A DNA stretch of 59,183 nt from IMG/VR virus record IMGVR_UViG_3300046791_000370, positions 1-59,183 of that record; one strand, 5' to 3'. Positions 10,711-10,819 of the stretch are shown here, one piece after another (position 1 is the stretch's first letter; each line of letters starts with the position of its first letter). The notes under the pieces were generated by a model. That model ran no database searches. It saw nothing but the letters and a program-made list of their open reading frames with translations, and was not told where the DNA came from. Position numbers and translations under genes: made by a program. This DNA is from a virus (taxonomy: Duplodnaviria; Caudoviricetes).

Positions 10711-10786
10711 GGGCGCAGGAGCAGGTTCGAGTCCTGCGTGGGTTGGCTTCGTCCAACCTTCTAGCTCAGGGGTAAGAGCGGCGCCC
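10711..10786 (+). ncRNA. circularly permuted tRNA-like RNA no. 2 (YrlA-like topology)
   Basis: GGGCGC-AGGA-[GCAGG TTCGAGT CCTGC]-GTGGGTTGG-CTTCGT-CCAACCTTC-TA-[GCTC AGGGGTAA GAGC]-G-GCGCCC, followed by a U-rich tract. Confidence 0.85.
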
Positions 10787-10819
10787 GCTTCTTTTTCTTT
10801 CTCGTGATAGGATGTCAAC

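Follow-up and report, generated by a model that had tools for sequence, protein, structure and literature searches.

The locus considered here raises the question of whether a phage can encode the tRNA-like body of a bacterial Y RNA by itself, or whether such a body is what remains of rearranged transfer RNA (tRNA) genes. The window analyzed is the whole virus record IMGVR_UViG_3300046791_000370 (59,183 bases; CheckV completeness 100), and the element in question is a stretch of 76 nucleotides (nt) at 10711-10786 on the + strand, which has the form of a circularly permuted cloverleaf without an anticodon loop. The element (unit C of a cluster described below) is tentatively read as a stand-alone tRNA mimic, namely a YrlA-type effector module that lacks the long Ro60-binding stem. 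Its parts are as follows.

10711-10716, + strand: 5' strand of the closing stem (GGGCGC), pairing 6/6 by Watson-Crick pairs with 10781-10786 in the minimum free energy (MFE) fold, and paired in models R1 and R2 (see below)
10717-10720, + strand: variable loop AGGA, 4 nt, read from the sequence
10721-10737, + strand: T arm GCAGG/TTCGAGT/CCTGC, from the fold and a T-loop scan
10738-10746 with 10753-10761, + strand: closed acceptor-like hairpin with loop CTTCGT at 10747-10752
10762-10763, + strand: U8-A9 (TA), read from the sequence
10764-10779, + strand: D arm GCTC/AGGGGTAA/GAGC, from the sequence and the MFE fold
10780, + strand: G26, read from the sequence
10781-10786, + strand: 3' strand of the closing stem (GCGCCC), from the MFE fold

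An initial annotation, made by a model from the letters of this DNA, had named these parts; all of them lie where it placed them, and the MFE fold is identical. Without constraints, the segment 10709-10800 folds into exactly the permuted cloverleaf (-35.8 kcal/mol, 36% of the ensemble), which is also kept beside the cloverleaf of the adjoining tRNA-Ile when 10633-10830 is folded as one piece. The two strands of the acceptor stem stand as described, and the helix is refined here to the seven positions of the tRNA register (10738-10744 with 10755-10761), of which six are paired (one as G.U) and one is a U.U mismatch, plus two further G-C pairs (10745-10746 with 10753-10754) that extend it. The strand GGGCGC at 10711-10716 occupies the place of the 3' anticodon-stem strand of a tRNA, lengthened by one pair. 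With tRNA position numbers that we take to follow the usual convention, the bases that make tertiary contacts in tRNA are present in the element (U8, A9, A14, G18G19, A21, G26, G53:C61, U54, U55, C56, and A58), and the bases for the 9-23-12, 10-25-45, and 13-22-46 triples can be read from it as well. Position 48 is an A, by which the 15:48 Levitt pair would be a noncanonical G:A.

The two ends of the element are marked by neighboring features, as the initial annotation had noticed.

10633-10708, + strand: tRNA-Ile(GAT), canonical, with encoded CCA (ARAGORN; Rfam tRNA model, 61 bits)
10789-10803, + strand: T-rich pyrimidine tract TTCTTTTTCTTTCTC, following the closing stem

The element begins 2 nt past the CCA of tRNA-Ile (10708). 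The tract at its other end is the only one in the 59-kb genome when both strands are scanned for at least 10 T in 16 and at least 15 pyrimidines, and its probable role is that of a terminator tail or processing site. In the ARAGORN drawing, positions 1 and 72 of tRNA-Ile, at the top of the acceptor stem, form a C.A mismatch, and the remainder of that stem is the palindrome CCGCGG.

Whether two unrelated tRNA halves might have come to lie side by side by accident was addressed with a control pattern, a T loop and the beginning of a D arm 20-32 bases further on, scanned over viral contigs, where it matched at least 129 loci with at least 142 junctions. Among the matches listed, both arms belong to ARAGORN-called tRNAs at 109 junctions. 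Nine of these 109 ordinary tRNA-tRNA junctions have an in-register acceptor of 6/7, and an acceptor of at least 6/7 together with a closing stem of 5/5 occurs in 0 of the 107 that could be scored. The element has both (acceptor 6/7; closing stem 5/5, in fact 6/6). Its two halves were also joined in silico with junctions of varying length, and 25 of the 39 resulting variants were called as tRNA by ARAGORN under default settings; some of these had a 7-nt loop and the anticodon CTT. The junction control and the rejoined halves together indicate that the halves form a proper, in-register tRNA body, and an accidental neighborhood of unrelated tRNA halves is very unlikely. Of the separate halves, the Rfam tRNA model finds the 3' half (10709-10745) in the right register at model positions 35-71 (12.3 bits, E 1.5), and it does not match the 5' half.

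The same scan also returned junctions of another kind. Among the matches listed, neither arm belongs to a called tRNA at 13 junctions; 9 of the 13 have a closed in-register acceptor, and in 6 of these 9 units the acceptor pairs 7/7. Ten units were compared (L034, L039, L060, L070, L083, L085, L086, L115, L122, and L132), nine of them from the scan plus L086. A TROVE (Ro60) gene lies directly beside the unit in 3 of the 10 contigs, a positive control which shows that genuine Y RNAs are caught by the criteria. Units also occur in two complete phage genomes that lack TROVE, G006 (145 kb) and G010 (57 kb). The uniqueness that the initial annotation had attached to the element is therefore lost: permuted units with a closed acceptor are frequent in viral contigs, some in complete genomes that lack Ro60, so that an orphan state is not exceptional. 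What is unusual in the element is the absence of a long stem.

In an alignment of nine such units, 91.5% of the cells pair, vs. 31-50% with slid partners, and each of the 7 acceptor pairs varies in both partners; acceptor pairing was itself a criterion of selection, which leaves the closing stem (71% paired) and the T stem as the independent evidence in this alignment. These nine other phage units, with the element sequence excluded, were the basis of model R2. This model scores the element at 44.2 bits with one non-standard pair, the Ro60-adjacent unit L086 (outside the model) at 42.6 bits, and ordinary tRNA pairs of a distantly related phage, L003, at 34-37 bits with 6-8 broken pairs. The element shares topology and registers with the other phage units. 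Five of these (L039, L060, L070, L083, and L085) continue into long outer helices in their MFE folds, whereas the element ends after 6 base pairs (bp). It is, in structure, a member of this permuted tRNA-mimic kind, and an outlier within it in that it consists of the body alone.

The relation to YrlA can be stated feature by feature. According to Chen et al. (2014; PMC4201824), YrlA RNAs have, beyond the tRNA-like domain, a 5' motif GNCGAAN0-1G, proposed to contact Rsr, and a long terminal stem, and their genes lie on the same strand as the Ro60 gene, no more than ~4 kb away. The element has the topology of the YrlA tRNA-like module, as had been recognized from the letters and as fold and models agree: a T arm, a closed acceptor-like stem-loop, and a D arm, in this permuted order, with the RNA ending at the anticodon-stem position (MFE fold, R1, R2). 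Its D stem GCUC/GAGC and its T loop are those of the YrlA consensus, the T stem departs from it in a single covarying pair, and like YrlA the element adjoins a tRNA gene. Its acceptor has the 7-position tRNA register, as does the 7-bp acceptor of M. smegmatis YrlA, which two sources describe as an RNase P substrate that receives CCA in vivo (PMC4201824; 10.1101/312249). Three other features that were tested are absent. The closing stem is 6 bp, as short as first described, with no long bulged stem; the 5' strand GGCGCAGG is one mismatch away from the motif; and no TROVE gene lies within ~4 kb. The earlier statement that there is no TROVE open reading frame (ORF) was confirmed, in that the search found none in the complete 59-kb phage record, and the same search matched 2 of 14 control genomes (Deinococcus radiodurans and Bacteroides thetaiotaomicron). 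The element also differs from YrlA in its 4-nt variable loop with A48 and in its length (76 nt vs. a 114-position model).

The Rfam YrlA model (RF02553) aligns with the element from end to end with the inner stem deleted, and gives 21.3 bits (E 0.059) vs. a gathering score of 69. On the neighboring tRNA-Asn and tRNA-Lys genes of L003 the same model gives 23 bits, and 15-24 bits elsewhere in that array; sub-threshold matches also occur in 13 of the 14 control genomes. Since ordinary tRNA pairs obtain scores of this size, 21.3 bits is no evidence for YrlA, and the membership in that family which the initial annotation had brought into play is not borne out. All ten phage units score below 69 as well (24-58 bits, the best 57.7). 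The cut-off misses L070 and L083, which lie beside TROVE (27-37 bits), and the 57.7-bit unit of a complete phage genome without TROVE. For detection, the lesson is that the Rfam YrlA cut-off missed every one of the ten phage units, yet the model gives noise matches on neighboring tRNA pairs. Full-text word searches of a limited library of papers returned no description of a stemless or Ro60-less phage Y RNA, and no relevant title on permuted tRNA in phage.

If the element is indeed a stand-alone tRNA mimic, it would share a transcript with the tRNA-Ile gene and stand last in a 747-nt tRNA-derived cluster. Judging from position, its 5' end would be defined by the 3' processing of tRNA-Ile, which ends 2 nt upstream, and its 3' end by termination, or by cleavage and trimming, at the T-rich tract. 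The RNA is expected to form an L-shaped tRNA body closed by the 6-bp stem, a shape suggested by the computed fold together with the conserved bases for tertiary contacts. Because the acceptor has the seven-position tRNA register, a cut by host RNase P is predicted between 10754 and 10755, by analogy with M. smegmatis YrlA as described in the two sources (PMC4201824; 10.1101/312249). The same analogy allows for trimming and CCA addition, which could yield a tRNA body in two pieces and without an anticodon. Such an RNA, lacking both an anticodon and a Ro60 site, would act through proteins that read the elbow or body of tRNA; processing or modification enzymes, or host nucleases that attack tRNA, might be among them. 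Speculatively, it may serve as a competitor or decoy and may also cap the 3' end of the transcript. It is doubtful, but conceivable, that the effector module of Y RNAs works alone without Ro60, and that the minimal stemless version of this phage titrates an elbow- or acceptor-reading host factor (a defense nuclease or a processing enzyme).

To account for the near-perfect tRNA body of YrlA Y RNAs, both sources propose an unknown elbow-binding effector (PMC4201824; 10.1101/312249). If the preferred reading is true, a body-only RNA in a Ro60-less phage would show that the module has a Ro60-independent job, and the element would offer a bait of 76 nt with which to look for the partner of the YrlA tRNA domain; titration of a host factor, if it takes place, would point to that long-sought partner. 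If the element is a relic instead, it shows permuted tRNA-like RNAs arising inside decaying phage tRNA arrays, the proposed origin of Y RNAs.

Several observations weigh against a stand-alone tRNA mimic. No homolog of the element was found in any search, which leaves the element itself without covariation: in phage records, blastn with 10300-11000 returned ordinary tRNAs only; a pattern specific to its T arm and D arm had 0 matches in viral contigs; relatives collected through the nearby exonuclease gene (4 loci of at most 46% identity in viral contigs and 4 loci of at most 37% in metagenome contigs) contain no homolog; and R1, the model of the element, is unmatched in four related records, including the complete relatives G001 and G004. 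The phage sequence is identical in three soil/rhizosphere DNA runs of three studies, in the pieces compared (one of these runs may be the source of the record), and no RNA run containing it was found. The energy z-score of the element is an unremarkable -1.27, with 20 of 200 shuffles folding equally well, since GC-rich shuffles also fold well; what carries the case is therefore the register and the signature bases of tRNA rather than the energy. R2 places the element only ~7-10 bits above ordinary tRNA pairs, as the T-loop and D-arm sequence dominates the score. Within the class of phage units, moreover, the variable region usually ends in GTC (nine units), whereas the element has A48, not C48, and 7 of 9 units start with G1-C72, whereas the element has A1-U72 and a pyrimidine-rich 5' acceptor strand. 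Finally, the cluster is full of tRNA-Ile relics and decayed units, among which the element could be a lucky rearrangement, and the locus L001 of the closest relative (G001) has no RNA gap upstream of the exonuclease gene.

The cluster occupies a 747-nt gap in the replication module (10073-10819) that has no convincing coding sequence. Five T-loop motifs lie on its + strand between 10223 and 10733, one of which alone belongs to a canonical tRNA (Ile). Besides tRNA-Ile and the element, it holds the following pieces.

10143-10244, + strand: unit A, a normal-order tRNA-like piece seen in folds, with a T arm at 10219-10235 and an imperfect acceptor (5/7)
10446-10578, + strand: unit B, a candidate second permuted tRNA-like unit (R1, 25 bits; folds)
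10599-10626, + strand: an orphan T arm, then 7 nt, T, and CCA, for which no matching 5' acceptor strand was found

In unit A, which ARAGORN finds only at a relaxed threshold, the anticodon loop is replaced by a 38-nt hairpin that extends the anticodon stem and has a GAAA cap. Unit A is topologically the same anticodon-less body as the element, opened at the acceptor instead. Unit B consists of a T arm (10466-10482), a well-formed D arm (10543-10558), and an outer helix of 10446-10465 with 10562-10578 (17 bp, bulged); its acceptor (10483-10489 with 10534-10540) pairs 7/7 with two G.U, and encloses a 44-nt insert with a 7-bp hairpin of its own. With filters off, R2 scores unit B at 16.5 bits, 20 of 21 pairs being standard, and the unit appears in unconstrained and constrained folds. 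It is weak in that its T arm pairs 7/7 also with an upstream strand at 10380. The layout of unit B is nearer to the long-stem YrlA design than that of the element. The D arms of unit A (10152-10164) and unit B (10543-10555) are 85% alike, with a compensated stem change (GTCT...AGAC vs. GTGT...GCAC). Rfam assigns no family to units A and B within 10040-10640. The sole ORF of the gap (10069-10308, 79 codons, over unit A) was ruled out as a gene, as its GC content by codon position is flat (0.59/0.61/0.59) and it has no PHROG or Pfam match; in the filter-kept genes, third-position GC is 0.72-0.94.

This setting is absent from the initial annotation, and it raises the odds of the foremost rival, by which the element arose as a by-product when a tRNA array was rearranged: through duplications and deletions in an array under decay, the 3' half of one copy of a tRNA would have come to lie beside the 5' half of a duplicate, with an inherited fold and no function. 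Five T-loops with one real tRNA in 747 nt speak for such a history, as do internal repeats that are relics of tRNA-Ile (its 3' end at 10363-10377, its D loop at 10073-10087, and its anticodon arm at 10188-10203), the poor arms of unit A and of a unit at 10380, both recognized at relaxed thresholds only, and the lack of a homolog of the element in the searches. The distantly related phage L003 (G003) has at least 14 tRNA genes flanking both sides of the homologous Rv2179c-like exonuclease gene. This intact array, set against the gapless L001, indicates that the locus is fluid and its tRNA array in flux, which makes rearrangement a serious rival. Like the tRNA pseudogenes and fragments of phage arrays, the element lies amid fragments beside a working tRNA and has neither an anticodon loop nor CCA. 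Unlike them, it has complete helices, in register and permuted, and keeps nearly all tertiary bases, whereas its neighbors are decayed. A by-product would also require both ends of a deletion to coincide exactly with the limits of the anticodon stem, the spacer to have shrunk to a 6-nt loop, and the discriminator and CCA to be lost; the acceptor strands, with A1-U72, are unlike those of real tRNA, and the combination of features is the one that no natural junction displays (0 of 107, among the matches listed). A mere by-product is held to be less likely than the preferred reading, and is the strongest of the alternatives.

Two other identities were tried at this locus and rejected. A permuted transfer-messenger RNA was ruled out, as ARAGORN calls one at relaxed thresholds only and with implausible tags. 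An attP core on the 3' half of a tRNA was ruled out as well: an exact copy of the 25-mer 10713-10737 is absent from the 185,579 species searched, each represented by one genome, and no integrase family was found among 53 proteins scanned of the 65 called genes.

Somewhat less likely still is a purely cis-acting end structure, in which the GC-rich closing stem with its three-way junction, ahead of the T-rich tract, would stop transcription of the cluster and shield the tRNA-Ile transcript from 3' exonucleases, its likeness to tRNA being incidental. The position suits this idea, since the element stands at the end of the non-coding cluster, directly before the only T-rich tract of the genome and ahead of the next ATG at 10820; moreover, nuclease protection is one of the roles that Chen et al. 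suggest for the tRNA fold (PMC4201824). A terminator scan lists a small alternative hairpin (10776-10790) plus the tail. That hairpin, of 6 bp, is weak, however (-6.6 kcal/mol vs. -36.1 for the element); the other stem available before the T tract is that of the branched 76-nt structure, and a branched 66-nt "loop" is atypical of intrinsic terminators. A strong stop at this point would keep transcription from reaching the exonuclease and polymerase genes downstream, and no promoter-like site was found in 9400-11600, for a host whose promoter type is not identified. A plain hairpin would suffice for such a role, which leaves the kept tRNA register and tertiary bases unexplained.

Far less probable is a genuine Y RNA that binds the Ro60 (Rsr) of the host through its 5' strand despite the short stem. 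In its favor are GGCGCAGG, which is one mismatch from the proposed Rsr motif of YrlA and which Rfam aligns to that part of the YrlA consensus, the consensus-like D and T stems, and the orphan units of complete phages; the element, however, has no extended helix, its strand departs from the motif, and its RF02553 score falls within the range of ordinary tRNA pairs.

Least probable of all is a true permuted tRNA gene, whose ends would be joined (e.g., by the phage RNA ligase) and whose acceptor would be opened by RNase P and 3' trimming into a decoding tRNA. Cyanidioschyzon merolae and Thermofilum pendens have permuted tRNA genes in which the 3' half precedes the 5' half; these genes encode the complete tRNA with its anticodon loop, and the splicing machinery produces a circular intermediate. 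The element shares the upstream 3' half with them and differs in having no anticodon loop. The acceptor in tRNA register, the ligase gene, and the ARAGORN calls on rejoined halves can be cited for this idea, which the initial annotation had hinted at, but it falters on the missing loop, as the closing-stem strands end at 10711 and 10786, a loop would need an untemplated choice of ends, ARAGORN passes only with arbitrary junction bases, and the 7-nt variant would have G, not U, at position 33. To our knowledge, neither a bulge-helix-bulge motif nor a splicing endonuclease is expected in bacteria, A1-U72 with G73 matches no obvious identity set that we know of, and ligases of this domain layout presumably seal nicks in duplexes.

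The remainder of the record gives the setting of the element. The genome has a GC content of ~64%, and its + strand carries almost all genes. Those of the replication region around the element, and those near the second tRNA of the phage, are as follows.

7331-9409: DEAD/ResIII helicase
ending at 10072: 205-aa protein
starting at 10820 (ATG): 63-aa protein, the first gene after the non-coding cluster
11008-11574: Rv2179c-like 3'-5' exonuclease
11571-13850: family A DNA polymerase
46524-46598: tRNA-His, the second tRNA besides tRNA-Ile
46604-47059: DUF2203 gene, between tRNA-His and the RNA ligase
47081-48178: RNA ligase (Pfam RNA_ligase with an N-terminal PHA02142 OB domain; phrog_968), ~480 nt downstream of tRNA-His

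With an RNA ligase of its own and two tRNAs, the phage invests in tRNA and RNA repair biology, which is counted in favor of a stand-alone tRNA mimic. The place of the ligase just downstream of tRNA-His fits a phage that copes with tRNA damage; no observation connects the ligase with the element. A separate ATP-dependent DNA ligase is encoded at 50545-51675.

As to the host, the terminase has no relative in genome contigs, and the matches of the polymerase are distant, to Thermus and to other phages. Proteins of the tail region (33763-37969) match the BR0599 and Rcc01698_C families weakly, below the Pfam cut-offs. We take these families to be typical of the gene-transfer-agent-like tails of alphaproteobacterial phages, which would be a faint hint at the host.

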